A stretch of 64,000 nucleotides of DNA from Phoronis australis (Eukaryota > Animalia > Phoronida). Location of the stretch: positions 74,300 through 138,299 of the forward strand of contig NMRA01000288.1 of NCBI GenBank assembly GCA_002633005.1, written 5' to 3'. The translations under genes and the position numbers were made by a program. This document shows positions 1 to 44,228 of the stretch, in pieces (the stretch's first letter is position 1; each line of letters opens with the position of its first letter). The notes under the pieces are model-generated. The model was not told where the DNA came from. It did not search any database and worked only from the letters and a program-made list of their open reading frames with translations.

Positions 1-1098
1 ATGGAGAACAAAGAAAATGGAGGGGTCTCAGCTGGCTGGGGAACACAACATGTTAAATCTCAACGGCAAAATTAACCAAAACGTTGACTAGATTGAATTC
101 CCTGATTTGTGTTAGATGTTATGATCGAGAATGAAAATAAAAGAAGTTGCCTTCGCAGAGTGATTTGAAGTAGTTTGTAATCTAGCGGATACTGTAGGCC
201 TACTACGATGGTAACTGTCAGCCTGAGTAAGTTATTCGGTTCACGTGTCAGGCCTACTTTCACCGTCGTTCACGTAAAATGAGCTGTTGCTAAACCCATT
301 TTTCTTTCCGTAAGTAACGTGAATCGGCACGCGCAATTACAATATGCGTGATAGGTCACGTTCACGTCGATTTGCGAAACCTCTCTATATTGAGGCCTAG
401 TTGTGCTCACATGGATCAGCCTGAGTGCCCCCCAACAGTAGAGACTCAAGTTCCCCAAATCTTACTGCATATTTGTGAATTTGTGAAAACGCCGATTGTC
501 CTTCCTTATGCTGTTTTAGTTTCATTACTAAGACAACTTTTGGCTTTGAAACAAATTGCGAGTGAACAAATGAATAGGGATCTTTTTATGCCGCAAAACG
601 CCCCTGTGAATGTAGGGAGTAAGTCCTAAGTTTATTTTCATTGAAGCAGGGCTCAGTTTTTAGTTATACTGTAAGAAAATATCAATTAGTTATACAGGAG
701 CTCATAATCAAGCTGAATTTTCATAAAAAAGTTTACACGTCTGTCAGTAAAAAAGACACAAATAGGCAAAAGATATTAGGGAACTTAGTTGAGTCCTTAT
801 ATTTGAATTTGGGACTGCCAGTCAGTGTTTCGGCCGGCACTGGAACGCGAAAGCTCGTCAAAATATCTTGAAAGCGACGCCGAGAAAATGCCTAGCATAT
901 AGGCCTAGGTTCTCGCGTAGGCCTACTACCCAATGAGATAAATATATTGCTCATTGTTACTACCAGCTAGGAACTGGTTACTAGCCAGCTACCAGGAAGA
1001 GAGAAGAGTCCTTGTTATCTCTGGTTACTATCCGTGTTTTTGTTTTGTGGGCATGCGCAGCCGGATGTTTATATTCAACAAGCGCGGCAGTTTGATTT

Positions 1099-1179
1099 GG
1101 GAAAAACCAATGACAGAGATAAATATTGAAAGCTTATTGGGAAAAACCCACGAGTTCTTACGTAATGAAATTGCGAAAT
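1099..1179 (+). promoter_or_regulatory. Candidate Rel/NF-kB + C/EBP motif cluster upstream of the IL-1-like gene
   Basis: GGGAAAAACC at 1099-1108 and 1139-1148, TTACGTAAT at 1158-1166, TTGCGAAAT at 1171-1179; possible splice donors follow at ~1203 and ~1214. Confidence 0.3.
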
Positions 1180-3234
1180 CAAGAAAAGCAAGTGATTGAG
1201 GTGTAAGCTATAGGTATGTTACAACATTTTTTCATGGTTTTGAAATGTGTTTGAAAATGTGTCCTATGCGATAACGCGTAGCATATGATATGGCCAAGAC
1301 AGCCTAAACTTAAATACGTAACTGACGTCTAAGCGTGCTTCCGGTGAATCATCAAGCACGCTTGACAGTTTTATCGCGGTCGCAGGTTCGATTCTTGGGT
1401 AAGGTAGTCGGCAAACGGATGATTTACCGATGAAGCACTCAGACTCAGTGCCAACTATTACAGTCATAGACAGGACCCGATGACTTGGAGTGGCTGCGAT
1501 GGTAAAAGTTCCAGGAGTCCAGGACTTGTGTGGCTGCGTGACACAACCTTGTGTTAAGGGCACATAAGTTACGTGTCTATTACAGTTCAAGAATGGGTTC
1601 AGACCAATGAACAATGTATCAGAGGTACGAGGGATCATTTCTCCCACGAGACATTGCCTTTATTGATATATTGGATGGAACTGCAATGGTGGAGTTGCCC
1701 AATCTCCGAGTGGTGAGGGTGTCAACGCAAGATTCTTTGTGTGTGTTAAATTTGAATATAGACCGTGATTTATGTGTTCCATCCCAAAAGCCTAATTGTC
1801 AGGGTTGAGGCCCTTAAGCAGCTTCAATACCTGTAGAGTCTTAGCAGTGAGGAGGAGATAAGTATTTGACATGTTGGGAAATGGGCATGCAAAACCTCAC
1901 AGACTCACGGTGTTGCTGAATTAATCTTTGTTGATTTATCACAATAGCCCTGTGAAACCTAAGGGGAAGCAACCCTTCATGGAAAGTTTGGGAAGAAGGT
2001 GCTTACAACAATTGTTCAAAGTTGCTTTATTTCTTTTTCAGTTTATGAGAGATTAATGGTCACGCGACTAAAATGAGTTGTTTCGTATTCGTGAACGTTG
2101 TGTTTGGTAAACTTCTAAAGATCTGGAGAGGTAATTAAGTGCACACTGTGATTTTGTTATTGAACATTTCATCAAAGTACATGTGACTGCCCTGTATGAC
2201 AGCTAATTGAGAAGGAATGAATCAATGTTTCTAAAATAATCTTGGGGAGAGTTTTTTAAGAGAATGGTCTCACAGATTAACTGCTTGCATAATTATGTTG
2301 AGCTTAATCTGTTTACTTCTGACTTGGAAATCTTTTGTTGGAATAATACATCGAAACATCATTCATTCATAATGCAAGTCATTGTTGCTTTTGTTTGCAG
2401 CTTTTTACTGGTCAACTGGCGGAAGTATGATAAGAGTTGAGTTTTTACTCATGGCAATAGATTTGACATTTCGGACTGATATAATTTCAAAAATTCCAAG
2501 TGATAACCTAAATATTTGTATAGCGCTTTAACACTTTAAAAATCTGTTGTTACAACTTACATTCCATCATAGATTATAGACAACAGATTCGCAACTCCTA
2601 CATTTTCTTGCGTAATATCCTATAGGAGGCGCCACTCTCCTAAATTATCTGTTTCAGTTTCCGGTTAGTGTATTGTGACAACACAACAGCCAACCATGAT
2701 TAGCAGACAACGTACTTGTCAGAAGTTACACCAGATAATTTGGTCAAGTGTCGCTAGTGAATAACGACGTCATTGCTTCTGTAAGAGCACAGGTTTCGTC
2801 CATTGAAAGTATACAGAGTTGGCGGTCCATTGTCAAAAGTCTATGATTCCATTCTACCATTTACTAAAATAGATGAGACGTAGTTTGTAGGCTTGGAAAA
2901 AAATGACATTCTTTGTTAGCGAGCATGTTCAGCGCAGTCAATGTGCTACAAGCCAACTAGTTCAGTTTTACGCAATGGTAAAATGTTCACTCTCATATAT
3001 CTCTGATTTGAATAGGAACAAATTGAGAGCTGTTTCATCACTGTGAATGGTCTGAATAAAAAAAGTTTTGACAAAGTTTCTAGTAGCAGTAAAGAATGTG
3101 GCTGTTTATTTTAGAAACCTTTGATACAGTTTGAGTTCAGTCCCCTGTGTAATCAGATTGGATACATTTTGAAGTTGAGGCTTGAAATTCACTAACCACT
3201 TCTGATTCAGTGTTTATATTTTTCGCTTTTTTAG

Positions 3235-3487
3235 AATACCAAAGACGCTGGCTACCAGAGAAGAGCCGTGTCATGAGATTGTCTTGCCGTTGTCAAATGT
3301 TCAATTTAGCCGACAACAATGAAAGGGCAGAAACTGGGACAATCAGGACAAAACTTCTTCATAAGAACAGCGAGAAATTGTATGGTAGTCTGCGACTATC
3401 CTCACAGACACAGACCAATAGAATTACTCATACGTTGACTGGTATAACAAATGCTGGAAACCCGGAACAGGAGGATTTCGTTTTTCG
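3235..3487 (+). CDS. IL-1-like gene exon A (N-terminus, first half of PDZ-like domain)
   Basis: Acceptor tttttag|AA at 3235; in-frame ATGs at 3273 and 3297; donor CG|gtatgt (phase 2) joins exon B as CGT. Confidence 0.7.
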
Positions 3488-6400
3488 GTATGTTAATATG
3501 TAGAAAACGTAATATGACAAAGAAAAAACATAGGTGCGAACTAATTGCTGAATTGGGTGAGGGTGTTCAAACTTTCTATACACCCTCATATACATATCAT
3601 TATGTATTGTTCGGGAGCAGCCCATCATCAACACAAACTTGATTGGAGAACACAAATTAATGTACTTTTTGTTGGACAGCTTGGTGTACACTCTTTCATA
3701 CTCTCTGTACAATTTCCTGTCTTCCAGCACTGTGTAGATGAAAGCAAATTACAAATTAAGTCATTACAAACAAACAAGTTAATTAAAGTAATTGCCATAT
3801 TTCAAGAGTATATGTCTCGCACTTGGGCACTAAACTGAACGTGGTGAAAGCGAAAGAAACCAGTAAAATGCGGTAAAATCTCACCTTTGGACAAAAGTAA
3901 TTTAATGGCAAAATTGATCTTTTTTCATTATTATTTATAAAAGCTTCTAACATACAGTGACATAATAACTTTGGAGAGAGTGTGGTCTTTTAAACCAAAG
4001 AAGAAGAACATGCTTTCGAATGTCAACAATCAGAATCATTGTCTTAAGGTAGCTATATCAGACCTTTAAAATGTTATAGCATTTATGTGGTCCTGCTTAT
4101 CTTTTATTAAAAAATGAAATCATAATATTTCTCTTGTCGGCCATAGTGTGTCCTAAATTGGTGAGATTTTACCTGTTAACAGTGGCAGTAGTTTGGAGGG
4201 CATACTTTGTCTAGTAGAGAGTGTGGATGTTAGGAAGCCCACAAGCCTAATGAAATTGTGCCAGCTTATGGTATGAAATACAGGTTTTCACGACTGATCA
4301 ACAGAGGACTTCATAACGGAAATGGGTCATTTTCTATATATAGCTTTTTTGCACATCCTAGCTAGTGTCCATACTGTTTTTGATTCTGTTTTGTGGACTA
4401 CACCCCCCATTCAGTTTAACGTATTCTGCACTATATGGTGGCCATTTTATGACACCAATTAACATCTCTAGAAGCTTACCATTTGTGGTGCAGTCGTGGG
4501 TGCATTTCAGCACTAATTCGGTTTGCCCTTGATTGACTTCATGGTGGAGAAAACACACTAAACATCAAAATGGCCAATATTTAACCTTTAAATGTATTGG
4601 ATGTCACTTATGCACTCAGTATAAAATAGACAAGTAGATGGATCGTTGAATTTGGAGATGTTGTAATTAAATTTCGCAAGATCCTGTCCATGCAGCTATG
4701 AAATTAGGCGCCTCAACACTGCTCAGGTTTTCCACAGTTGCATGCAGCATTGTCCAGTGTGGAACCCATAGCTAGTTTCTTTCATTTTGAAGTTGTAAGA
4801 TTTTGGGCCCGAACATGCCGAGTACAACTTGAGCATGTCACGGTCATCTAAATGTTATTTTTGCCAACTGTTCTGCACGCCACCTGTTGGCCTCATAAAT
4901 ATGATTTTCCATTAAGGCCTCCATTCACCTTACAAAGGTTTTGCCAAAGATCTGTCTTTAAGGGTACGGTATTTCGGGCAAGTTGATTTCCAATGAGTAT
5001 CACTATAATCATCCTTTCATCTTGGTAATCAAATTGCCAGTGGGTTTCTGTATCCCTCCTCCATTTTAGTTAAACCCGTCACCAGAGTTGATTATTGACC
5101 ACTACTTGTGGCAGTTTATCTTGGGACACATGTTGGCTATATGAACATGCGTTTAATGGTTATTGAATAAAAATGGATCATCTTAAAACTGTCATTTTTG
5201 AATATTTTTAGTGATGATGATCTGCTAGAGTCCATTAATGATACCAACGTGTCTGTCTACTGCCATCAACTCGTTGCATCTATGCTTCAACATCAGAAGG
5301 AAGTATTTACATTAGTAAGTTGTGTGTTCATGTATTAAGAAATGGTCAGTTTATCGTAGCCGGGCCAATGACTGGAGGTGATGAAATATCGGAAATCGCC
5401 CTCTTTCCTGCTTGATGATGGGGACATTTTTGCTATTCAAGAAGGTGAATTCCCACAATCCACTGCGCAGACATTTTATTTCCTTCTTCCTGACTGGTTA
5501 GCCATATGAACAAATGTAGCACTTTAGCATCTAGATAGTTCTGACAATGTCAAGCTAATAATGTTAGCCAATCAGGTTGTGGGAGCAATGTGTAAACACA
5601 CCAAAATCTACCATTTTTCAATCAGTGGTTGTGAATTACGGAAAATGTTAAGAGGTTTTGCGGAGACTGAATGAAAAGTGCTGCTGATCAAAGCATATAG
5701 TAGACTCCATGATCAGAGGAATATAGTGTCGCCTAACTAGTATCAAGTGCAGCACTCGACGCTTAATTAGCTAAATGCCAAGTTGCATTCGGTGACAGGT
5801 CATTGGTGTAACATTAACCGAGATAGTGCCAGATATTTTTTCTGTCTTACGTGCATGCAAAGTTTCAATTTGCCGACAACATAACTATGTCAAGAAGGCA
5901 AATGTCTTCCTGGTTACATGTGTATGCACTTTCTAATAATTTAATTAATTTGTACTTTTGATGCATTTGATGAAATTTTCACTAAAAATGCCCTACAAGT
6001 GTCATTGTAAAGTTACTCACCAACTCAAGTTTACACCAAGAGCGTCGAGTGCAGGCGCAAAATAATTCACCCACAAAAAATGTTTCCCAGGAAAACACAC
6101 TTCTTTGTTCTGCGACTTCCACTGCATTGAAGAAGCTCACACATATTTTGTTTCAAGAATTTTTCTCTGTTCATGTCGAATACAATGAACTTTTTATCAT
6201 CAAAATGAAAATTTGAAAAAAAGAATTAAGAGTTCCATTTCAGGTGACCTGAGGTTGATGTCTGCACCCAAACAAAGCAAATGCTTGTCCAAGTACACAG
6301 AACCATCGAACAAAAGAAAGTAAAGAATCCTCCTTCAATTGCATTCATGCTATGTCTTGCGCGCTCATGCCGACTTGTTTCAATTTTGAACGTGCGCATT

Positions 6401-9400
6401 ATGAATATCAATGGATGCTATTAAAAATGATGCAAGTTTGATTTGATAGTATTCAGGTTACTGTACAGTAATTTATTAATATTTCAGACTGTCATACGAA
6501 ATGGAAGAAGACTGAAGCTGGAAGTTAAGCTCGGTAAGTAATGTTTTACACCCTTGTAGTACTAACAGTAATACACCAACTATAATGCAAAAATAAGTAA
6601 AATATATTTTCTGCATAGTCAGAATGTGCCAAATAAACCGAAACTGAATAATATACAGTTGACAGGTGTGCGAAATTAACTGAGAGACCAAGCATCGCCA
6701 ACTGCCTTTGTGTGTGAATGTAATGGAACCGACTTCGGGTTTTCAACATGATCCTGTTTAATAACAGTAATTAAGTTTACCATGCTGTTCTAACGTAAGA
6801 ATTCTTTATCCCATTAATAGTGAAACACTCTTTGGACTGTAATTTGATCATTTAAAGTGACACAAAATGCACCTGGTGACCTGTTTGACCTCATGTTTTA
6901 AAAAGTGTGAGACATCCCATATAAATTGACTCTCATGTTGACACGGAATGTAGCGCTACCACCACTGAGAATGTATACCATAAGAACTGCATGTCTTATG
7001 GATTATCCAAGTGAGGAATGTGTGGTGATTTTTTCGGGACAATTTTAAGGTCATCAAACCAGGTGATAGATAGTGGATGTCGTTACTTGTTATCAGAACA
7101 TAGTGTCATGTACAGGACTTGGAATTTTCCTCTTTTAAGAAGATTTTCTATTTTTTGGTTTCGATTTCCTCTTATTTGATTTCCACTTCCTCTTTTTTGT
7201 CATTATTTTGACTTTTTCATGCAAAAGCATTTATTTCAGTTAAATTTTACAACAAAAAATAATTCTATCACACTGCAAGCTTATTTATTTGTGGAACGAT
7301 ACATCACCTGGAAAATTTTCATCTTTTTTGTCATTGATCATTCCAAGCAATGCATGTAACCTCAGTATGGAAACAAACCCATGTCACATGGATGAATGTT
7401 TCCGTCGTATTGTGAACAGCTTTACACTGGAAACACAGTTTGCTAATTTCCCAACGATTACTCAAATCATGCATTTGCAAGGTGGGTACAATCCGAGACC
7501 ATTTATCAAATCAGCTTGGCTGGAAAACAATTGGGAAAGAAGCAGTAGATACATCACAATTCGCAATGTAGAAAGTTGTGTTTTTAGTCACGTTCATGGA
7601 CAGAAGTGTAAGTGAGATATGACTAAATGTGTTCTAGGAACTTACTAAATCCAACTGGATGGATGGTTAAGTGAGACGATGTGTGCTATCTGTTGCACAA
7701 AATGCCAAAATCTTCCGTTGCCATGGACCTCTGTAACCAGTCTCAACTGAGAAGGGTATAAGAATGTTCTCATGCTTTCTAAATCGCATTTTATTTTTTT
7801 GTGACATAGGTGCTACTTTATGGCTGTGTGGTTTTTGCTGCTTGTAGTAATTTCTGAAGAGATCGAATTTCATGCTTAGTTTAAGGACAGAGATGTTGTG
7901 TTTTATAGATAAAAGAAACGCATTGTACATCATAGTGCATGCCGGGGGTTGTGATGAAGTCGACGGGGGCTGTGGTGGAATAAACAGTATCAATGACATA
8001 GAAGATGTGCAATATGATAACCCAGAGTTCACCCATGTCATGAAGTGGTCTGAAGACAGAGTCCAAATGGCACCTAAGGCAGACACAATCGGGTCTAGTG
8101 GTGTGTGGTTTTGTATAGTTTCACTCAGCTTGTTTTCCAATTGAGTTTCATGTGTTCAGCTTGTATCAGGCAAACATTTTTATGCACCCAAATATTTACG
8201 TATTTGTGGGTGCATATTGCTGTCTGTGTCATGGCGTCCGGGCATCTGTTGTCCGGCGTTTGTAGTTGTATCTCCTAAACTCCTTGCACGATCTTGATGA
8301 AATTTGGTAGATGTGTTCCTATGAAAGTGAAGATGGATGACGACAAATGTCTGACCTCTCCGACTACCGGTGAACCCCCTTTAAGTGGCAATTTCAGTTT
8401 TGTATGATTACCTCTGTACCTTCAAAGGTCCTGAAAAAGATTTTTATAAAATTTTGAATATAGGCATCGATCTATTGGTGAAATGATGCTATCATCCTAA
8501 TTTTGGATGGAATCGAGGTATTTTGCACCACCTGGTGGGCATTTTTGGTGTTTTCAAATCTTGTGTTTAGCGTTCACCCTCGATCAACCAAATCATTTTA
8601 GGGATGGTTTTGAAAATTGGCGAATATGTTTTCAGTGTGAAGCGGACTTTTGATGATGGTGACTGAATACTTGTTTTGCACCCATAGCTGTATCTCCAAA
8701 ACCCACTGCAGGATCTTTATTAAAATTCAATAAGTGCATTTATATGAAGATCACAGACAACTTTCAGACGGATGGAACGGACGCTGTGCCCACAATTGTC
8801 AATTTCATTTTGTTCTGTTTTCCTTTTGTTTCTTGAAGTTCCTTGACAGATTTTTATGAAATATGGCATGTTCCCATTTTTAGATGGATTGTACGTTTTT
8901 GCGCCATCTAGTAGCCATTTTTATGATAAAAATAACCCTAAAAGCACACCATTTGCGATACATTCGTGGGCGCATTTCAACGCTTTGTGTTGTTCTTGTT
9001 ATATAATTAGGCAAGAGAATTTAATATGAAGTTGACAATTGACAACAACGGCATTTGGATGGAACCGACTATCGCTGTGCCACCCCTAGTGGCATTTTTT
9101 CCGTTGTCCTCTGTATCTTTTAAACTCAGTAGATATTAGTGGAATTTAATACATAAGTTTCCACTAAGGAGATGACAACGCCTTCTCATTATTGGGTGGA
9201 TTTGACGTACTCTGTGCCACTCTGTAGCCATTTTAACATTTCTTGAGTACGTTTGTGACATCACTCTCTTGATCCACTAAACTGCTTGATGGATCACTAC
9301 TAAAATTTGGAGATGTGTTCCTAATGAGAAGACCGAGGCTGACGTTGATTTTTTGACTTGTTTACCTACTCTGCCCCTGCAAGTGGCAATTTTATTTTTT

Positions 9401-12400
9401 GCGTCCACAGCTGTATCTTCTTCCTTTTTATGATCTTCCTAAAATTTAGCAGATGTCACTTGTGCTCCTATGGAGATGGCAACTGATAACCTCGAGTTTC
9501 AGACCAATCCAACTACAGCTATGCTCCCTAAATGAAATTTTATTTTTTACCTGATACTTGATGCTTTTTCATAAAATTCAGTAGGGCAAACAAATTTCTC
9601 TCATGAAGATGATAACATCTTTCCTTTTTGTTATATATCCAAGGTATTCTGCCCAGTTAGTGGTCATTTTAATTATTTTTTGGTCTGTTTTTTGTCATCT
9701 GCCTCTGTTTCTGCCAAACTAATCGGAGGATCATTATGAAAATTGGCAGAGATGTTCCTACTCACAAGAGCATGACTGACGTGAATATTCTAGCTGTTCC
9801 AAGTACTGTGGTGCCCCCTAGTGACATTTTACGCATCAAAGGCTGTATCTCCTAAGCCCAGTGCAAAGTGTTTTTGAGCAGTTGTATTCGTATTAACTTG
9901 ACATTTGATGAATGGATTCGACTAGTGCTGTGGTTCCTAATGGCAGATTTTTACGTTTGCCTTTGTATCTTTTGAGCTCTTTGTGGATTTTCATGAAATT
10001 TGGCAAATAATTTTTATGATACTATTAAATTCCTAGGAGCACACCATTTGCAGTGCATTCAATTTCATGGATGTATTTCAACACTCTGGGTTGCTCTTGT
10101 TTGCAGCTAGTATTTTATTGTGGCCATGATGATGTAGAATTTCATGGGGACTGAATACCCAGTTTCAACGTGCGCTTCTTGAATACATGAAGTATTTTTA
10201 CCGTGGTATCCATTTGTGAGGACTGAAATACTGAATAATATTTAATCTGCTTTTCCCTAACTAGGGCTAGTTGCATGGTTTGGCATATAAAGCGCTGTCG
10301 AGGTCATGTTAACCTTAAGACATCCCACTTGACACAAGTGCTAAATGCTTTAATATAATTTCCCCCATTGATAAAAAATCGAGTTGAAGACTTCTTGTTT
10401 TTTGTGGTTAATACTGGGGCCGGAATGAAGCACATAGGTGAATAGTTATGGCTTAATAAACCACTTCATTCCTATCTTACTTTGAAGTTGACCATTTTGA
10501 CTTGCCAAAGCAGCGTTTAGTAGCTTTAAAGATGATGATTGATTTAAATTGTTGTTCACTTTTGTTTCTTACAGAATTATTCGTTGTTGATCAGTATATG
10601 GGTCTGGATACTACAGATGGCTCAGATGTATTTATTTGTACTATTCGTGTGCATCACAAGTCTAAACGATCACGTAAGGATCGGTTTCTGATGTGTACCG
10701 ACAACAAAGAGGTGGTATTGACAGTGAGTAGTACTTGTAACATTTGACGTGAACTCAAAAACGTGTTAAAAATTATATCTAGACAATATCCAGAGAATGA
10801 TTGAGGGAGCTTGAGGCATCTTTAAACACAGCCATAAGACAGGGACGCACTGCCACCATTGAATTTTCATTATGTATTTGACTATGGTTACCATAGCGCT
10901 CCCTGTTGACCATTTCAGTTGTTGTCAAGATATTTCTTGTTGATCAACTTTTGGTAAAAAAACGGCAAATTTTGGTGAAAATTGACACAAGTTCATGATG
11001 GCGATGCACTGTCACTACAGTAAAATCTTTTGAACTTAGGGCACAATATGGTGGACGAGTGAAATTTTATTTTCTCATTTTTCATAAAAAAATATTGAGC
11101 ATAACACTGAAATCTTGGTTTATTTGACTCTGACTGTGTTATCCGGAACTCCTCGGGTATTTTGCAAACCTCAAATATCCCCTCGGAGGTGCAATTCTAT
11201 TTGCACATGTGCAAACTTTAGGAAATGTCTGAGGATGTTATTGCGTGAGATTTTAGTGCTCCCCAGAACTCGCAGCAGTAACAAGTTTGAATTCCACCTT
11301 CCCAAGTTTAACTTGTGTTGATTTTGGAAACTTACTACAAAGAGTCTGAAATGTTGGGAGGTCATTCACCAATATATCGGTTTACAAGCAAATTGAAACA
11401 TTTGACTTAAAAAGATGTTCATCGATTTTGTAATTCAAGTCTGAATTTATTGTGGAGAACGCTGGACTTTTAGACCTAATGGTGATGCCATGATTTTTGA
11501 CTTACCGTTTCTTGAACAAATGGTTTCACAGTTATCATTGAAGTGCACACACAAAGCATCTCTGATGGGAAAAAGAGTCCACAAAAATACCCGAGGTGTT
11601 CTGAATGCTGTTGTGGCTGACATCAATGGATGAGTGGCCGATTGGGTGACCTAAAAACCAACGTGCAACTTTAACGTCTGTCCAGTTACGTTATAGATAA
11701 GTGTTTCTCCATACTGTAGCAGCGGTTTATTATTGAGTCATGGTGCACTGACTGGTCACTTGGTTTACTATTATTTCAGAAAGCTAAATTCCACGAAGAT
11801 CATGTCAATCTGAAAAAGCAAAAATCCATGCTATTTCAACTGAGAAGTTGGAATTACGTAACCTTCTTTGAGTCGTTGTCTTATTTGGGTAAGTGATTGT
11901 GAAGGAAAACCTCGCAATTATTTTCTCAAATATGACTATCTTATTTAGTCTCAAAGTGTACGGAACGGTTCCGCAGTTTTTTAACATCCACTTAGAGCCA
12001 TAAAAAATGGTATGAAACAAATCTATACCTTACCCTAAACATGTTTACAATTTTATATTTTTATTTCCTGAATTAGCATTTTCTTAATTAGAAGTTCAAT
12101 TTTTGCCATGCAGAATATTCCGCAGATCATAGTTTTGCAGAATACTACGCAGATTTTGTGGAATATTACGCACTTGCAGAATACTGTGCAAGTTTTGTGG
12201 AATACTGTGACTTGCAAAATTTTATGCATATTTTGTGGAATAATAAACAAAATAATAATTTATTTTTAAAAATCAGTGTGACAGTTCCAGAAGGCTTCCA
12301 AAAAAATAAAAGTTTAGCACAGGTCTAAAATTTTTAATTTTCTCCCAGCCCAATAAACATGAATTCCATTCCATTCTCAATAGCACTTGAGAGTATAATG

Positions 12401-13209
12401 TGTCCACTCTCAATAATTAATCAATCTGACGGTTGCAGAATGGTTTCATACAAGGAACGGTTCCGCGAACAGAATAGTTTTTTGGAGCACTCAATTGAAC
12501 TTCTAATTAAGAAAATGCTAATTGAGGAAATAAAAATGTAACATTGTTAGGGTAAGGTATAGATTTGTTTCATACCATTTTTTATGGCCCTAAGTGGATA
12601 TTAAGAAAGTGCAGAACCGTTCCGCACACTTTGAGACTAAATGAGATAGTCTCATTTGAGAAAAAATGGCCTTAGTGAAATGTTATTCAGTGTTTGGTAT
12701 TTCCTGCCTCAAGTCATGAAAATCACATACAATCCTCAAAATATGTTATGTATTTCAAACACAACAGCTAAAGTAACTGGCAATGCATTTGATAGGTAGT
12801 GTTCTTGACATCATTACAGACATGACGAACTCTTCTGTAGGGCTGCAGACCAGTACTCTGAGAATTTCGGTATCTGTAATGAGTCATACGGCCCCTAGCT
12901 AGTATCATGTAACGTGCTTTTGCCACTTAAATCAACTCTTTAAAGTTGTAGCCAGGTAATTTTCACATGATGAAGTTGCTTATAATTAATCGGAAGTGTC
13001 AGTTTCCTTGAATTTGTGCATTGGCCCGCTCTAATATTGGTATTATATCAAATTAATGTTTTATGGCAGGTTACTTTCTTTCTCACGAGGATGATCAAGT
13101 GTGCTTGAAATATGTTGGCACTCACAGGTCATGTGAGGAACTAGAGGAGATTCCAGACATACAGTTTGGTGTGCAATGGATAGACACCTTGAGGACACAG
13201 CTGTCCTAA
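3273..13209 (+). CDS. Spliced gene: PDZ-like domain + IL-1/IL-18-like beta-trefoil cytokine precursor (~317 aa; 5' start uncertain)
   Basis: Exons 3273(acceptor 3235)-3487, 5212-5314, 6488-6533, 7909-8100, 10575-10723, 11780-11888, 13070-13209 sum to 954 nt, in frame, all GT-AG. Product: MRLSCRCQMFNLADNNERAETGTIRTKLLHKNSEKLYGSLRLSSQTQTNRITHTLTGITNAGNPEQEDFVFRDDDLLESINDTNVSVYCHQLVASMLQHQKEVFTLTVIRNGRRLKLEVKLDKRNALYIIVHAGGCDEVDGGCGGINSINDIEDVQYDNPEFTHVMKWSEDRVQMAPKADTIGSSELFVVDQYMGLDTTDGSDVFICTIRVHHKSKRSRKDRFLMCTDNKEVVLTKAKFHEDHVNLKKQKSMLFQLRSWNYVTFFESLSYLGYFLSHEDDQVCLKYVGTHRSCEELEEIPDIQFGVQWIDTLRTQLS*. FESLSYLGYFLS matches the IL-1 family signature (human IL-18 FESSSYEGYFLA). Confidence 0.8.
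5212..5314 (+). CDS. IL-1-like gene exon B (PDZ core: DDLLESINDTNV...HQLVASML)
   Basis: tttttag|T GAT...TTA|gtaagt; the peptide fits the PDZ GD-x-I-x-x-I-N-G...H-x-x-V-x-x-L pattern. Confidence 0.8.
6488..6533 (+). CDS. IL-1-like gene exon C (TVIRNGRRLKLEVKL, PDZ last strand)
   Basis: atttcag|ACT...CTC G|gtaagt; 46 nt, phase 0-1, fits both neighbours. Confidence 0.8.
7909..8100 (+). CDS. IL-1-like gene exon D (linker with DEVD/G, start of trefoil)
   Basis: ttttatag|AT...AGT G|gtgtgt; phase 1-1; overlaps ORF 7872-8144. Confidence 0.75.
8177..10101 (+). mobile_element. Helentron-associated (HINE/DINE-like) non-autonomous element with degenerate ~140-160 bp tandem array
   Basis: 5' tttttATGCACCCA...TGGGTGCATat hairpin, short GTCC-like tract, ~11 degenerate units (aaatttgg..atgtgttcctat..ga.gatga...ccctagtggc..ttt..tgtatct), and a 3' end motif (catttcaac.ct.tg.gttg.tcttgtt) present twice, at ~8975-9000 and ~10075-10101. 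Confidence 0.55.
10575..10723 (+). CDS. IL-1-like gene exon E (ELFVVDQY...ICTIRV...FLMCTDNKEVVLT)
   Basis: tttcttacag|AA...ACA|gtgagt; phase 1-0, like the central trefoil exon of IL1B/IL18. Confidence 0.85.
11780..11888 (+). CDS. IL-1-like gene exon F (KSMLFQLRSWNYVTFFESLSYL)
   Basis: ttatttcag|AAA...TTG G|gtaagt; carries the FES motif; absent from the ORF track. Confidence 0.85.
11920..12667. mobile_element. MITE/foldback element with ~180-bp terminal inverted repeats
   Basis: 11920-12101 is an imperfect reverse complement of 12493-12667 (e.g. aaatggtatgaaacaaatctataccttaccctaa / ttagggtaaggtatagatttgtttcataccattt); short internal tandem repeats at 12109-12243. Confidence 0.8.
13070..13209 (+). 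CDS. IL-1-like gene exon G, terminal (GYFLSHEDDQVCL...DIQFGVQWIDTLRTQLS*)
   Basis: ttttatggcag|GT TAC TTT CTT...TCC TAA; completes the YLG/YFLS signature across the intron. Confidence 0.85.
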
Positions 13210-16200
13210 GTACTGTTGTTGTTGTTCCGGTTAGACCTTGGAAATGTCCAGGAATTTGGTATCTCTCGGGACAAGGTGGTTGGAATTTTAACTTGATCTA
13301 AACAACTTTTAAAAACGAAATTTCTATACAGTGCTTGAAAATCACCAATTTCATATCAAAAAAAACAACCTCACCTGTGTCAGCTGTCAAATTAGAACAC
13401 CCACAAACACTATCTGACGATATGTTAATTAGATGATCTCCAATTACGAGCATTTATTGGTCGATACATGCCACTAACCGGGTCAACCAGTCACAGCACT
13501 GGTCGTCCTCTGTTGTTTTTAGTGTGAAAAGTCGTCAAATGTTGCTGCTCGTTTCCTGTTTTTTATGGTATAATGACAATTTTCCGGTGGTTGTGGCAAC
13601 TTAGTATTTGGCCACGCTGTGACTTCTTTCACTTTTCTGCGGCACATTAGAGAAGCATGGATATGGTACATGTTTGTGCAAGAAACTCGCGTGTTGGTGG
13701 ACATGACATAGTGACAGTGGGTACATGTACATTCATGCGTCCCTCTCATGTCCACGGACCTAAGAAACTTTCAGTCGATGTCACTTTTGTATTTTCTCTT
13801 TACTGGGATATTGAATTGGTGATTGTGAGGTGCAGTGCTAGAAAGGAAACATTAGTGATGCGGACAGCGAAGTCACTTGTCAAAACAAGGTAAATGGTGG
13901 TTTTAAGCGCATCATTATGAAGTCAAAAAAATAAAGATAGGTTCTGCACAATGGATTTTCACCGTGAAGACATGGAACATTATTGTATCAGATACAACAT
14001 GCATGAAGTTTAGATAATTGTCCTGTAGTACTCATATCATCCGCAATAACGTGCTTATGTTTTGTTGTGCAAATTTTATTGCTGTGTTGTAACTGCCTAC
14101 TGCTTTTTGTGAATTGCTGTTGCACTGATTTATTGTGCAACGTGTGTTAGTCCTGCCAGTTGTGAAATCATGGTTCAAAGAATCATGACATTTAGCAAAG
14201 GTGTTTCTGCAGATGGAAAGCGAGTTGACATTGTTTTATTTAGACAGTTTCAAGTGCTACATTAACTCTGCATGCCCCTAGTGGCAGTTTTAGTTTTTGC
14301 TTTTTCCTCAGTATCAACCAAGTTTACATATTAAATGTGACATGCTCAGTGGATTACATGGTCATTGTGCTATTTTGTTAGTTTTGAAGTTATAGTTCGT
14401 GTAAGGTGATTTTATGATGTTGTCAGTCTGGTCATTATTTTGTTACTGTAGCCATGTACTATTAAACGAGCAACATTGTTATAATATGGTTCTTCCTATT
14501 GTTTTGTTATAGACAAGCAACTGCTCACAAGTAGGAGCAAAGGATGCAGGTATTAAGAAATCTGTATTGATTGAATATTGAGCAGTTTGTTAGTGACCTT
14601 CGTTGCTCGTGGGAAATATCACTCATGTATAGCCTTTGACTGGCATATGTAGTTGTCTCCATGTGCAATGTGTAGTTCTGAGCCTGTAGAAATGTGCTCT
14701 GCTTTGTAGTATAATTTAAATTGTATTTTATGAACCTTGATAAGATATGATAATTGTCTGATATTTTATAGTCTGGACAAAAGCTAAATTTGCTTTTTCA
14801 AACTTTCTGTTTATACCTGCTTGTTAGATCTGCCTTTTAGATATGTTAAATACATGTACTTTTGTGCAACATATCTTTGTTTCGTTTGATTCCACACAAC
14901 CACTAACTAATTACTACACATTTTATGCCCCCCATATTATGTGCCCCCATTGGAAACCCCTTTTATCCTCTCGACGAGTCACAGTAGACTGGTCTATTGA
15001 CATTATCGTAGTGAGCAACATTAGCGCACTAACCACAACCTGAGCAGCTGATCGGCTGCTGGGACAGTAAAAAATGAGTAGTTTTCCCAAGGAACGTCAC
15101 CAATTAGAAAAACCGCCAACGTTAGGCATCATTGTCGATTGATAATGGAATTACTAAGCAAAACAATCGTGTTGCGTAAAGCACCCTTCGAACCGAACAG
15201 TGGCGTAGATCTCGGATAGAGCGCTACCGATTTAATCACGACCCACGACGAATCAATTTTCGTTGCACCCATGTAAAATGCCACACAACAGCTACGTTTC
15301 GTACTAAATCTGACAACGGCAAACTTACCGAGCTCTGTAGTCAAAAACTATTTTTCACGTAAGATATCTTGATTATCCACTAACAATATCCCCGACAATA
15401 CATCACCGCGGCACTAGTCGGGGTACCATTTTATAAGATCGTGACTCAGAAATGTCGTTAATTGACGGTGTGCGTGAATGTACGTCTCGTTTTTATCGCA
15501 AAAACATACGTGAAGATGACAACCCTTGAAATCAAATAGATGTTGCAATGCCGTGCAGTTACCGAAGAAATAAATATAAAAAAGTAAAACTAGTAAAACT
15601 AAAATGACTAGCGTCGGTACTAAAATATATTAAAATATCGTATCGAGCGATGCGCTCTTTCTCAAGGGTGTGTTACAGACTGCTGAATACATTTGGATAT
15701 TTCTAAAAACAAATGGCACAGGGGCAGGCCCGTAGGAAGGAAAAAATTATTGGGGGGAGGCACAAACCAATTTGACTTCGCCAACCTACCCCCTTGCTAT
15801 CGTTAGCCCCCCCCCCGGGATGTCACCGTATTTGTACTGAGCCACACCCCCCACGCCCGCTTGTGAAGGTGGAGTAATTCCGGGGGATGCAGCGATCAGG
15901 ATTTGAGTAACCGTGAACCAACAAACCTACAAATATTCACGAAGAGTAAGAATGCGTCTAGGTCCCGAGCGCACTGACGGGTGACCTGGTGGCCTCCTGA
16001 AGTAACTATAGCTGGGTCGAAGGTCAAGGTTCCTTTTATTTTCGGGAAAACTTCATTTTGTTATGGGGATTGTTTGAAGTATTTTTTGGAAAGCTGAGGT
16101 CCCGAGGTGCTTGGTATGAGTGCCTTTGTGGCCGTTTCAGAATCCCTTGATCACAGCCGGTAGTCCAGTTTCTGGTTGCTGGGTAAAATGATACTGAGCT

Positions 16201-39190: not shown

Positions 39191-42100
39191 TATGATGATG
39201 ATGATGATGATGACGATACGTGTGTTCATTTAAGGTGTCATCGGAGTAGAAGACAAAACAACAATTAACATTACATTTCCGTCACACAAAGACAACTTTT
39301 ACTTGGCAACTGGAAAAGACAGGTGGAACAGATATACTTACACCAAGTACAGCTCTAGTTCAACCTTAAGAGTTGAGCTGAATAGAGGACAAACTTACCA
39401 GGTAAGGTAAAGTAAGCGTACATGTACATGACCATTTGATGTTCAAGTCGTGGAACTTTTACGTACGTTTAGAAAGGAAAAGATAAATTGGAAACGATCG
39501 GAGTAATTAAGGTCAAATTTAAACAAGTGTGGGTTGAAGTGGGACGCAGCACTAATTCATGACGAATCACGAACTTTGAAGACGAATAAATCAGGTTGGC
39601 GACAGCAAATCTCTCCGATCAAAAGATTAATGGACTCTAATCGGCCCATGGTCTTGAAGTGCAATTAGGAAAGTTAAATCATTTGTATAAAGAACCACAA
39701 CAATATACAGTATATCATTCCAAAACATAAACCATAGTAATGGCGTTCAATGATGGCGTTGCATACTGTAAGTCTGTAAGTTATGAGTAATCGAAAATAC
39801 TGCACTTAACCAAATGTTTATATTATTCAGTAAAGTATATACATGTATTTTGTAAAAGTAGAATTTATTTTCTGGGCATGATGCATATACCACGTTTTGG
39901 TTGCTCGAGTTTGTTGCTTCTCAGTAAAATGACGCAAAAAAGAATGAAAGCAAACAACTGCATCTATAAAATGAACAATTTGCTTTTGGTATAAATGTAT
40001 AAATCAAAATTACATTTTTCCAACCCACCAACTCCATTTTATTTTATTTTCACGAAAATCATAAAAGTACCAATTTTCGATCGCACCTTGTTCAAAACTG
40101 AAACATTTTATACAAGTCCAGACAACTTTTTGAGAGCTGTGCACAACATTTCGCAATCAAACATTTCTGAAATATGACGTTCCGAGGCTTGACATTTTTC
40201 AGGGCTATTCCTTAACGGGAAGCAATTGCTTTCGCACAAACAACGGCAACAGCAACAAATTATGGTACGACAGGAGAAATGAAAGTGTAGACCAGAAATA
40301 CTAGACTCGGCTGTTAAGAATGAATTGGAAATATCTGGAATGGAATGCAGACAATGCATTTTAATCGTGTATGTACGTACTTGTTTAACTCCTTCTTTCA
40401 GCTCCAGTCCAACGATGATTTAACCTCCACTCGTGTTCAGTCCAACAAACCTGTGGCAGTAATGTCAGGCAGCAAACGTACAAGTATTGCTACGGCAGGA
40501 AGTTCTGATCACATCGAGGAAATGGTTCCGCCGACGTTGTCCTGGGGAAAAAGGTTCTTAACAGCACCTTTTGCCGGAAGAACTGGTGGCGATATCTTTC
40601 GAATTTTGGGTAAGACCACATTACGAAACTATCGGCAAAGTTTTCCAGTCTGATACTCGGTAGCTGATATCCAATTCTACACTTCGGTGTTTCTGGAGCT
40701 TGATCAATTTCAGCATCCTCGCAATCTGAAACAGTTGGATAATGTAGACGCGCAAACTATCGCCCTCTTACTGAGGCTATTCCTGCACCCTCCTCGATCA
40801 TCACCCATTCGCACCCGGCACCTCCCAGTCGCCGTTTTGGTACCTTGGTCAAAATCGCTCTCAGTTTGTACTCACAAGTTATACAAAAGAGACGCTGGGA
40901 TGCTGTTGGCTTTCCTGCTGCAAACTCCTTGAAAGCATATCTTTTCTGAACTTAGAAAGCCTGTGAAATTTGATTTGTGACTTTATACAAATCTTCTAAT
41001 CAATTTGGTCATATGACTGATTCTTTTTATGAAACGTTGGCAAAAAAGAAATATTTATCCATCAGCAAAACAATGGTATCAATAACATAACCAACTGCTG
41101 TTTGATAAAAATATAAAAGATGACCTCTCAAAAACGCTATTATAGTTTTCTAAATTATCATTTCGTTTTCCCTCTATAGCACTTTTATTTTTTCACATAA
41201 ATCATAAAAGTCCTATTTGTGAGTGCCCCTTATGCAAAAGTGAAAACAATTCTTTACTGTGCTTTAGAGAACGGTGCATAAAGTATGGTGTTTTAAAGTG
41301 TCGTATAAATCTGAACAGCCACTTCTGAGTTATGATGTGACAAACTTGCCAATTTTTCGAGGGTCTTACATTACCTTAATAATTGTTCCAAAACTGCATG
41401 TTGTATTGTCCTGTTTTTGTTATGTATTTGCAGTCTCCGTTGACAATACTGAGATTCAACTGACGTCAACAACTGACAACGCCACCACGAAGGAAACGCT
41501 GAAATTGGGAAAATTTAAAGAATTAGACATCCCGTCTACTGAATTCTATTACATATCAGCCACGGAACCGATACTGGTTGTACAATATTCAAAAACAAGT
41601 AGGTTTTGTTTATAACTTCGTTTTAAGTTTAAAATGATTTGTAAATTGATATGCAAATCAAATACACGTCCCATTGAATGATTTGTGTTGCCATCCATCT
41701 TGCAAATTTTGAGTTGGAATAACATTCATTTGGAAAATCAACCGAAGTCGGGATGAATAGCAATCTTTGCATGCTATCAATATAACAGGTAATATAAGAG
41801 AGAGAGCTACTACCCGCAGTTTTTGAATTATATAGTACATTTAAATAATCGCTCGTTTGTCTGTATAATATTTTGACACAGGGAATCACCCGTCTTATTG
41901 GAATTCAGGTATTATAGTCCCTGTGTTCAGATCAGGAAATTAGAATGACTCAGATAACTACAGAGGAATCATGCTGACAAGACTTTCGCCGTGCTGTTAT
42001 GTAACCGACTCCATTCATAGGCAGATGAAAACAATACTCTGTGTGAGGCTCAAGCTGGCTTCAGGAAGGGGTAGTCCACAGTTGACAACGTTTTTTCTAG

Positions 42101-44228
42101 ATACTCGTATTAATAAATATCTATTGAAACGCAGAGGTCGATTCTGTTGCCCTTTTGTCGACTTTAAAAAGTGTTCGACTGCATGGGTCTGGCATGAGGG
42201 CCTTCGGCTTACGTACAAAACGTCACGTTTTGAAATATATGAAAAAATGTATGAAACTCTTAACAGCATGCATAAAAATGTGAAGTCTCGCATCTTGCCG
42301 AATGGGGACGGTTACATAACCGATTTCTTCCAGTGCACGATGGGCGTAAGACAAGGGTGTCATTTGTCTCCTTTTCTATTCTTCTTGTTTTTAAATGATA
42401 GGGAAAGAGATTTACAAAATGAACAAGACTCGTGCGTTATTGGTTTACTAAATTTATTTTCACTATTGTTTTTCGATGGCATAGTGCTCGTCGCACCAAC
42501 CGCTATTGCTATGCAAAGATCACCAAAGTAGAAAGACATTGTAATAAATGGAAGCTTCATGAGAATATGTCAAAAAAATATTGTCTTCCGTAAAGAGGGA
42601 TAACTAAGAAATTGTGAAAAGTAGAAATCATTCGGGGAAACTGTACCAACGACTTCAGAGTATAGCCAGTTAGGAATCAAATTTGCCCCTAAGGGTGTGT
42701 TAACAAAGGCGCAGAAAACATGTAGTTGGTGAAGCGACAAAAGCTATTTTTGTACTGAAGAGACACATGACTGAATACACTGACATTCCTGCGCAAATGT
42801 GGTTAAGACTGTTTGATGCAAAAAGTACATTACCAATTACGTTGTATGTTTTTGAGATCTGGGGATTTCATCCTGCACAAGACATTGAAGTAGTGCACAA
42901 TAAGTTTTTTAATTTCTTATTGTGACTTGGACAGCATGTTTCAAACGTTGTAGTGAGAGGAGAACTTGGCAGAGCGACAATATAGGTACATTTATTATTG
43001 AGAATTGCTAAATACTGGTTAAAGATTGTCAAAATGCCAAGCCATCGTTATGTTAGTGTGTGCTAAAATGTGCAGTATGAAATAGCTGAACAAAATAAGT
43101 GTTGCTGGGCTCTAAACGTAAAAGAATTGTAATTTACATATGGTTTTGGAATTGTTTGAGCACAACAAGATGTAGATGATGCTGCCTCAATTATATGTGA
43201 ATTTCAGCAACGATGCTGTGACCTTGATATCCTGGATTGGAGAGACAGTATAGTATCTTCCGAATCGTTAGATGTTTATAAAATTGTCAAATGTGGTTTT
43301 GTTATTGAAAAATATATAACACGTCTAGAAAACAGTTGACATAGAGCAGCCCTCGCAAGATTTAAATGTTTGGCTAATTCTTTAAGGGAAGATTAATTGG
43401 TTTGGGTAGAGAGGAGAGAACATGGCCCTGCTGCAATAGTAGAAAGATGGAATCAAAAATGCACCTTTTCTCGAAGACAAATTATATTCTGATTTGCGCA
43501 TGCAGTTTTTACCTGAATTCGATAGGGTGGACAAAGCAGTATTGAGAGATCTCCTACAGATCCATGATTTAAATAACGCCAAACAATGTTCTTAAAATTA
43601 CAGGTAATGTTGACAACAAACCCAGCGATCCCTTCATGACTCTGATTGTGCCAGTGGAACAGTATTCCAAAGACTACACTTTCGCAACACCGGAAGCCGT
43701 GCTGGAACCATATCAAAACTACGTCTCCATCACATGCAAAACTGGTGAATGTAAACAGCTGTATTTAGATGGCTCTCCCATATCTGGTGCCACCTTCATG
43801 ACAACATGGACGTCGATTCAAGGGCCGCAAAAGCCTATGTCAGTTGGCATACTGAAAATCAGCCACGGGACTCACACTTTAAGCCACCCCGATCCAACAG
43901 TTACCTTCGGTATTCAACTTTATGGCCAGGTACTGTACGAGTCATACGGCTTCCCGGGGGGTACGTTAATAGCCCCGCTGTACAGTGCTTGCACTCCGAC
44001 AAGCGTTGTGGTGAACGACGGGTTTGACAACGACTGTGATGGTAAAATAGATGAAGAAGTCGAAGACGGTCTCGACAACGATGGCGACGGAAGCATAGAC
44101 GAAGACACGGCGCAGCAGACAAATCCGCTATTTACGTCACCAACTACGACTACCACACTGGATGCTTCCACATCGACAACATCATCAACAACAACAGAGA
44201 CAGCAACAACAAGAACAACAGAGACAGC

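Follow-up and report, generated by a model that had tools for sequence, protein, structure and literature searches.

We analyzed a stretch of 64,000 nucleotides from Phoronis australis (contig NMRA01000288.1 of assembly GCA_002633005.1, positions 74,300 to 138,299), which we call the window and number from its first letter. Near the beginning of the window, on the plus strand, is a gene with eight coding exons (Table 1). Its product very probably combines a PDZ domain with an IL-1-type beta-trefoil and belongs to the IL-1anc family, as judged from motifs, gene structure (intron phases), and size. IL-1anc was described by Fontenla-Iglesias et al. (Nat Ecol Evol 2026, PMC13736523; preprint, PMC12338702), and its members include proteins from brachiopods and bivalves. 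Between the two predicted domains lies a candidate caspase site.

The gene is transcribed and spliced

The preliminary description of this locus, made from the DNA alone, proposed seven GT-AG exons that encode a protein of about 317 amino acids. These exons do join in frame (all seven have AG acceptors, and GT donors follow the first six), and together they form a single open frame of 329 codons; the 317 amino acids are counted from the ATG at 3273. However, there is an eighth coding exon upstream, so the longest product has 349 amino acids (40.5 kDa) rather than 317. The six peptides that had been quoted are all present in the window on the plus strand: five are contiguous, and the one that includes FES is split by an intron and is whole after splicing.

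We examined splice joints in raw RNA reads from three runs of one study (X5 to X7), using about 18 to 19% of each run, positions 1000 to 13300 of the window, and a threshold of 96% likeness. The counts rest on the 15 joints listed out of 19. Eight of the 15 are GT..AG joints that belong to the gene. At all eight, the first mate is on the minus strand, which indicates a plus-strand transcript by the convention of most stranded libraries. The other seven, none of them GT..AG, fall inside intronic repeats. The introns contain dispersed repeats at 7100 to 7400 and 8230 to 10100, with many RNA reads at 90 to 95% likeness from other loci.

Five of the six junctions of the preliminary gene model were recovered as GT-AG joints with 7 to 16 raw reads each: 3487>5212 (8 reads), 5314>6488 (7 reads), 6533>7909 (7 reads, from the X7 run only), 10723>11780 (10 reads), and 11888>13070 (16 reads). 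The sixth, 8100>10575, is absent from the 15 of 19 joints listed for X5 to X7, and it was seen only in one 315-letter contig of X8, a run that is only guessed to be RNA. The alignment of this contig to the genome breaks off at 8097 and continues from 10574, and two letters lie in the gap, which is consistent with junction 8100>10575 plus one allele difference. Joint 2130>3235 (10 reads) adds the coding exon at 2042 to 2130. Two further joints lead into this exon from alternative first exons: 1213>2042, with 8 reads from three runs and at most 46 letters on the short side, and 1624>2042, with 7 reads from two runs and at most 70 letters on the short side. Thus, the gene is real, transcribed, and spliced, and its expression level is low.

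The first in-frame ATG, at 2073, is behind an in-frame stop, so both of the alternative first exons are noncoding. Two short upstream open reading frames (ORFs), with ATGs at 2045 and 2056 (window 2045 to 2076), precede the ATG at 2073, and the second of them has a stop that overlaps this ATG. These upstream ORFs may dampen translation, or the ATG at 3273 may be favored or also used.

The N-terminal half resembles a PDZ domain

The N-terminal half had been viewed as a plain pro-piece. Instead, it seems to contain a PDZ-like domain, which the preliminary description overlooked. Amino acids 107 to 122 match a pattern for the second half of the PDZ domain, ending in the His of the helix, that we abstracted from lophotrochozoan IL-1anc sequences. 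This pattern was found in none of 50,000 shuffles of the protein, at one place in the six reading frames of the window, and in none of 31 unrelated stored proteins. When exon 3235-3487 was modeled alone with single-sequence AlphaFold2, three strands were predicted at amino acids 52 to 92, at low confidence (mean pLDDT, 56.5). A Foldseek search with this model gave no match at E values up to 0.001. The three predicted strands likely correspond to the first half of the PDZ domain, which is present at the level of motifs only.

At the RNA-supported N terminus, no basic residue precedes the hydrophobic segment (amino acids 3 to 11), a basic amphipathic segment follows, and the helical hydrophobic moment of the protein peaks at amino acids 13 to 23 (0.80). 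The best 19-residue window has a mean hydropathy of 1.25. To us, this N terminus seems unlike a typical signal peptide, and PDZ-bearing IL-1anc proteins do not have one (PMC13736523). By analogy to the family, the protein is probably synthesized in the cytosol, with no signal peptide being cleaved off. Still, the N terminus that was added by the RNA is hydrophobic, so the earlier description of the protein as leaderless is only tentative.

The C-terminal half contains IL-1 motifs

IL-1anc proteins are defined by an N-terminal PDZ domain, a C-terminal IL-1 beta-trefoil with (F/L)ES in strand 9, and a length of under 500 amino acids (PMC13736523). The same paper reports that the trefoil is spread over three to five exons with conserved central intron phases. 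In the 349-amino-acid protein from P. australis, the predicted trefoil region is encoded by four exons. FES is at amino acid 297, which is 53 residues from the C-terminal end. FES alone occurs in 10,424 of 50,000 shuffles, but the longer pattern for strands 9 and 10, which matches at the same place, was reached in just 16 of 50,000. Also, [FY]LxC followed by FES (amino acids 255 to 299), as in vertebrate IL-1anc sequences, was reached by 48 of 50,000 shuffles. The PDZ His and FES are 175 residues apart; by our hand counts from Table S2 of PMC13736523, this spacing is about 186 in LanaIL-1.2 and about 179 in BfloIL-1.

When exon 10575-10723 was modeled alone with AlphaFold2, it formed four strands, three of them long and the last one short (mean pLDDT, 77). 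A fold search with this model returned generic sheets, with no trefoil among the 50 matches listed. Neither the CxFxE motif of FGF proteins nor, within amino acids 173 to 349, the QxW motif of ricin-B lectins is present. A 12-strand beta-trefoil in the C-terminal half is thus a prediction from motifs, gene structure, and single-exon models.

The intron phases of the gene provide another line of evidence. The phases of the coding introns are 1, 2, 0, 1, 1, 0, 1. The phases around the predicted trefoil are 1, 1, and 0 (at amino acids 153, 217, and 267), as expected for an IL-1-type gene. A phase-1 intron and a phase-0 intron are 80 and 30 residues ahead of FES, and the introns of IL-1beta and IL-18 are at positions close to these. 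FGF genes may share core phase-1 and phase-0 introns, so the two central phases alone would not separate IL-1 from FGF. The coding introns of IL-1beta have phases II, 0, I, I, 0 (PMC4880838). This run of five is contained in the gene from P. australis, and the probability of this occurring by chance is 1.2 to 1.4% under two assumed sets of phase frequencies.

Comparison to other members of the family

This protein is likely an uncatalogued member of the published IL-1anc family, rather than an IL-18 orthologue or the founder of a new family. The preliminary description had proposed an IL-1-family protein that resembled IL-18. The broader part of this claim is supported by IL-1 motifs in the expected order in the C-terminal 177 amino acids and by intron phases like those of IL-1beta, but the specific likeness to IL-18 is not. 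The preliminary description also mentioned that homologs of IL-1 had recently been proposed in invertebrates. These are indeed in print, with lophotrochozoan members included (PMC13736523).

The closest systems are the lophotrochozoan proteins LanaIL-1.1 and 1.2 (from Lingula), PmaxIL-1.1 to 1.3, MtroIL-1.1 and 1.2, and CvirIL-1.1 and 1.2. We compared the protein to the entries in Table S2 of PMC13736523 by eye and with short motifs; the table's cells were seen to 400 characters. The lophotrochozoan proteins have the same PDZ motif followed by a domain with FES, at similar spacing. Like the protein from P. australis, they have under 500 amino acids, the ESL form of the strand-9 motif (in eight of nine lophotrochozoan sequences), and an aromatic residue two positions before the PDZ helix His. 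In contrast, the hydrophobic and basic N terminus is a feature of the P. australis protein. Four of five diagnostic words from this protein were absent from the seven supplement files of PMC13736523 (the first 400 characters of each cell), and the fifth was found only in an oyster sequence.

Fish nIL-1F (from lumpfish; PMC7144542) and the IL-1anc proteins of vertebrates also have a PDZ domain and an IL-1 domain, a predicted caspase site, and [FY]LxC ahead of FES, with seven coding exons compared to eight in P. australis. However, the vertebrate sequences have FESA wherever the motif is visible, and their Cys-rich insert ahead of the trefoil is longer. Vertebrate IL-1beta and IL-18 share with our protein a pro-domain followed by a trefoil, a mature piece predicted at about 20 kDa, and the IL-1beta series of intron phases. 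Unlike our protein, they have no PDZ in the pro-domain, and the P. australis gene has additional phase-1 introns just after FES and at its 5' end.

A candidate caspase site in the linker

The Gly-rich linker between the two predicted domains contains DEVD/G (amino acids 169 to 173, with the slash marking the putative cut), flanked by Cys168 and Cys175. DEVD is the optimal sequence for caspase-3/7. A cut at this site would leave a C-terminal piece of 177 amino acids with a computed mass of 20.6 kDa. DExD[GSA] occurs anywhere in the protein in 328 of 20,000 shuffles. More generally, DxxD is the caspase-3/7 consensus (PMC9355259), Gly is favored after the cut (PMC11253702), and tagged mature IL-1beta is given as 20.6 kD (PMC13736523). 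A disulfide between Cys168 and Cys175 would tether both halves after the cut in oxidizing surroundings, but this is speculation.

The closest precedent is SpurIL-1.3 from sea urchin, which is cut at DEPD (Asp184) by human caspase-1 and by a sea urchin CARD caspase (PMC13736523). Both proteins have an acidic DExD/G that is preceded by Cys and is upstream of an intact predicted trefoil. SpurIL-1.3 does not have a PDZ domain, whereas in our protein the motif follows one. In SpurIL-1.1 and 1.2, DEPDG precedes the PDZ domain, so a cut there would leave the PDZ attached. Similarly, the sole DEVDG in the accessible cells of Table S2, in SkowIL-1.2, is upstream of the PDZ domain rather than between it and the trefoil.

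We lean toward the view that this gene encodes an IL-1anc pro-cytokine and that a caspase cut at DEVD/G in the linker frees the 177-amino-acid half. The gene is transcribed from two first exons, and its eight coding exons are spliced into one frame. The product, with its very probable PDZ and IL-1 trefoil, would then persist as a cytosolic pro-form whose signal-peptide-free state is expected, with reasonable confidence, from the family. A caspase that cuts DxxD, either of the caspase-3/7 type or, as with SpurIL-1.3, one with a CARD, would remove the PDZ half at Asp172; we consider this prediction somewhat better than even. Finally, the trefoil might exit via gasdermin pores or lysis and take part in immune responses by acting on an Ig-TIR receptor, a step that is suggested by the family and for which we see the chances as balanced. 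PMC13736523 itself notes that neither ligand-receptor binding nor a proinflammatory function is shown for IL-1anc. The route of release depends on the host, since PMC11508797 reports gasdermin E from brachiopods, molluscs, and annelids but, in its accessible part, not from phoronids or nemerteans. Coral gasdermin E is reported to be activated by caspase-3.

Evidence against this view and alternative explanations

Several results count against the assignment to IL-1anc or against the proposed cut. Most broadly, no search of sequence libraries gave a significant match. With six single exons as queries, no PDZ or IL-1 family was found in Pfam, and no IL-1-family ligand was found among PDB sequences, in both cases at E values up to 10. 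In a collection of 5.8 billion proteins, exon 10575-10723 and exon 11780-11888 (the latter with four intronic codons) gave two candidates each, and none at E values up to 10; exon 5212-5314 gave no matches at E values up to 0.001 among 1.84 billion representatives. These queries were single exons of 34 to 83 amino acids, with low power, and the blanks show neither absence nor novelty. Within the C-terminal half, a strict form of the strand 9-10 pattern, without the Phe that is allowed by the amphioxus sequence, fails by one residue. A "strand-Gly-Cys" expression has no match in the protein, and no three-fold internal repeat was detected. The PROSITE signature for IL-1 (as given in PMC4880838) is matched at six of nine fixed positions, which 370 of 5,000 shuffles also reach. 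Furthermore, the motif patterns were written after the protein was seen, and the shuffle counts are optimistic. At the N terminus, amino acids 3 to 11 are hydrophobic (mean hydropathy, 2.69). As for the linker, 933 of 20,000 shuffles have some DxxD[GSA] within amino acids 131 to 200, and a second DxxDG, at amino acid 229, is inside the predicted trefoil. None of the PDZ-bearing IL-1anc proteins were cleaved by the caspases tried, according to the accessible part of PMC13736523, and cleavage of human IL-18 and IL-1beta by caspase-3 is reported to inactivate them (PMC11253702). Also, no receptor gene was seen among the 30 flanking ORFs that were scanned.

The protein might be an IL-1anc that works uncut, either as a full-length alarmin or as a protein anchored by its PDZ inside the cell, perhaps with its hydrophobic and amphipathic N terminus keeping it at a membrane, and with DEVD being incidental or an inactivation site in apoptosis. 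The second DxxDG, the inactivation of the human cytokines by caspase-3, and the amphipathic segment near the N terminus would all fit, and PMC13736523 allows for uncut active forms. Nevertheless, DEVD/G is in a Gly-rich stretch between the domains, the piece that it would release is in the size range of mature IL-1beta, and it resembles the DEPD site that is cut in SpurIL-1.3. We consider an uncut protein somewhat unlikely.

The other alternatives question the nature of the C-terminal half and seem much less probable. Because the whole-domain fold is a prediction, and because FGF genes may share the two central phases, this half could be another beta-trefoil (FGF-like, a ricin-B lectin, or fascin-like) with a likeness to IL-1 that reflects the shared fold. 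But FES and the motif that follows it match IL-1anc sequences, the FGF and ricin-B motifs are absent, and a PDZ domain followed by a trefoil is the published hallmark of IL-1anc (PMC13736523), so we view this as improbable. We regard it as at least equally improbable that the C-terminal half is not a trefoil, in which case this would be a PDZ protein or an unrelated protein rich in beta strands, with motifs that arose by chance or by the fitting of patterns. Three motifs from published sequences occur in the right order and with the right spacing, together with the five-intron phase match, and sequence searches are reported to fail for IL-1anc in general (PMC13736523), quite apart from the low power of short exons.

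Finally, the gene could be a true IL-18 orthologue, or the host could be a jawed vertebrate with a known orthologue. The preliminary description matched the C-terminal half strand by strand to human IL-18, and FLxC is common to IL-1anc sequences from shark, skate, and bony fish. However, the strand matches were not reproduced by a tool (the PDB searches above were blank for IL-1-family ligands), and the same motifs match published IL-1anc sequences. The ESL form in lophotrochozoans contrasts with FESA in the vertebrate sequences whose motif is visible. The IL-18 subfamily has a short pro-piece without a PDZ domain and is found in jawed vertebrates, whereas the pro-region here has 172 amino acids and a PDZ motif. 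Also, the named eukaryotes among 31 matches to a neighboring gene were Lingula (two matches), Pecten, and Solemya, with no vertebrate. We consider an IL-18 orthologue very improbable.

Implications

Because the family has been published with lophotrochozoan members, the interest of this gene is now that of an added member with a well-placed caspase motif. Invertebrate IL-1-family genes were in print by 2025/2026 (PMC13736523), and their existence is no longer new. What is new is an RNA-supported gene model from a species that is apparently outside the catalogue of PMC13736523, with no match in protein collections to single-exon queries. PMC13736523 leaves open how PDZ-bearing members are processed, and the position of DEVD/G makes this question testable with one substrate and a point mutant.

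A more specific and, in our view, unlikely version of the proposed processing is that executioner caspase-3/7 matures this protein, with one protease both removing the PDZ domain at DEVD/G and opening gasdermin E pores. If this were true, then an apoptotic caspase would switch a cytokine on, whereas in mammals IL-1beta and IL-18 are inactivated by caspase-3. This protein would also be the first IL-1anc with a PDZ domain for which a defined cut removes that domain. In addition, the match to all five intron phases of IL-1beta, two of which fall within the PDZ, would point to the pro-domain of IL-1beta as a decayed PDZ domain.

Other features of the locus

Coordinates are given in Table 1. The likely 3' untranslated region (UTR) contains four scattered ATTTA motifs and one AATAAA, at 13930. 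Within the coding exons from 7909 to 13209, nine RNA allele differences include six missense changes, two synonymous changes, and one stop-to-stop change (at 13208). DEVDG and FES are untouched by them, and nine are too few to show selection. No second copy of the gene was found in the window.

Table 1. Features of the candidate IL-1anc gene (positions in the window)
Feature	Position	Strand	Basis
Alternative noncoding first exon A, 3' part only	1168..1213	+	Joint 1213>2042, donor checked
Alternative noncoding first exon B, 3' part only	1555..1624	+	Joint 1624>2042
First coding exon, aa 1-19, ends in phase 1	2042..2130	+	Joint 2130>3235; frames, hydropathy, moment
Coding exon, aa 20-103, ends in phase 2; ATG 3273 and likely PDZ-like strands 1-3 (aa 52-92)	3235..3487	+	Joints; AlphaFold2
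Coding exon, aa 104-138, ends in phase 0; PDZ second-half motif	5212..5314	+	RNA joints; motif match
Coding micro-exon, aa 139-153, ends in phase 1; PDZ-like end and linker start	6488..6533	+	Joints 5314>6488 and 6533>7909
Coding exon, aa 154-217, ends in phase 1; linker and likely trefoil strands 1-3	7909..8100	+	Joint 6533>7909; X8 contig to 10575
DEVD/G motif, aa 169-173, candidate caspase site	7953..7967	+	Sequence, masses
Coding exon, aa 218-267, ends in phase 0; likely strands 4-7, FLxC at aa 255, DxxDG at aa 229	10575..10723	+	AlphaFold2; joint 10723>11780
Coding exon, aa 268-303, ends in phase 1; likely strands 8-9, FES at aa 297 (11867-11875)	11780..11888	+	Joints; motif
Final coding exon, aa 304-349 plus stop codon; likely strands 10-12	13070..13209	+	Joint 11888>13070
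Likely 3' UTR, at least to 14500	13210..14500	+	Same-strand RNA depth; 725-letter X8 piece at 13498-14219

The sequence GGGAAAAACC occurs twice at first exon A (1099 to 1108 and 1139 to 1148), 40 bases apart. These are its two matches in the window, versus 0.13 expected, with the pattern chosen post hoc. We take GGGAAAAACC to resemble Rel/Dorsal-type sites. The canonical kappaB consensus is absent near the gene, and GGGAAAAACC does not fit it either.

In the search of PDB sequences, one exon matched linker or tag stretches of expression constructs, including 8odz and 8cr6 at window positions 7950 to 7973, which we rejected as not due to homology. We presume that the matching stretches of 8odz and 8cr6 are engineered caspase-3 sites. 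In the ESM Atlas, the best score was 0.76 for one single-exon query, and the other had no match. A literature search, with subscription journals largely uncovered, found no other paper on this protein.

From about 19000 to 64000 on the plus strand, at least three multi-exon genes with IgGFc-binding domains (PF17517) form a tandem array. These are the neighbors of the candidate IL-1anc gene, rather than GCC2, ESD, or a receptor gene; no GCC2, ESD, EIF2A, TRAF3, or IL-1 receptor gene was found in the 30 of 173 listed ORFs that were scanned, with just 1 kb of upstream sequence in the window. The accessible part of PMC13736523 reports no microsynteny for IL-1anc within lophotrochozoans. The genes of the array also encode a short acidic Cys-containing repeat (with a weak match to PF11617 in the first copy) and a Thr-rich mucin-like stalk, and the first two copies have a likely transmembrane segment and a cytoplasmic tail. 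The exon that gave the 31 matches mentioned above is about 42% identical to its match from Lingula, 38% to Pecten, and 45% (over a short stretch) to Solemya. The low identity to Lingula shows that the host is not Lingula anatina. These matches weakly favor a lophotrochozoan host, in line with the original impression that the neighboring genes look invertebrate, with prokaryote-like proteins scoring equally high. Inside the second gene of the array is a decayed fragment of a reverse transcriptase (41944 to 42531; RVT_1, E = 3e-08).

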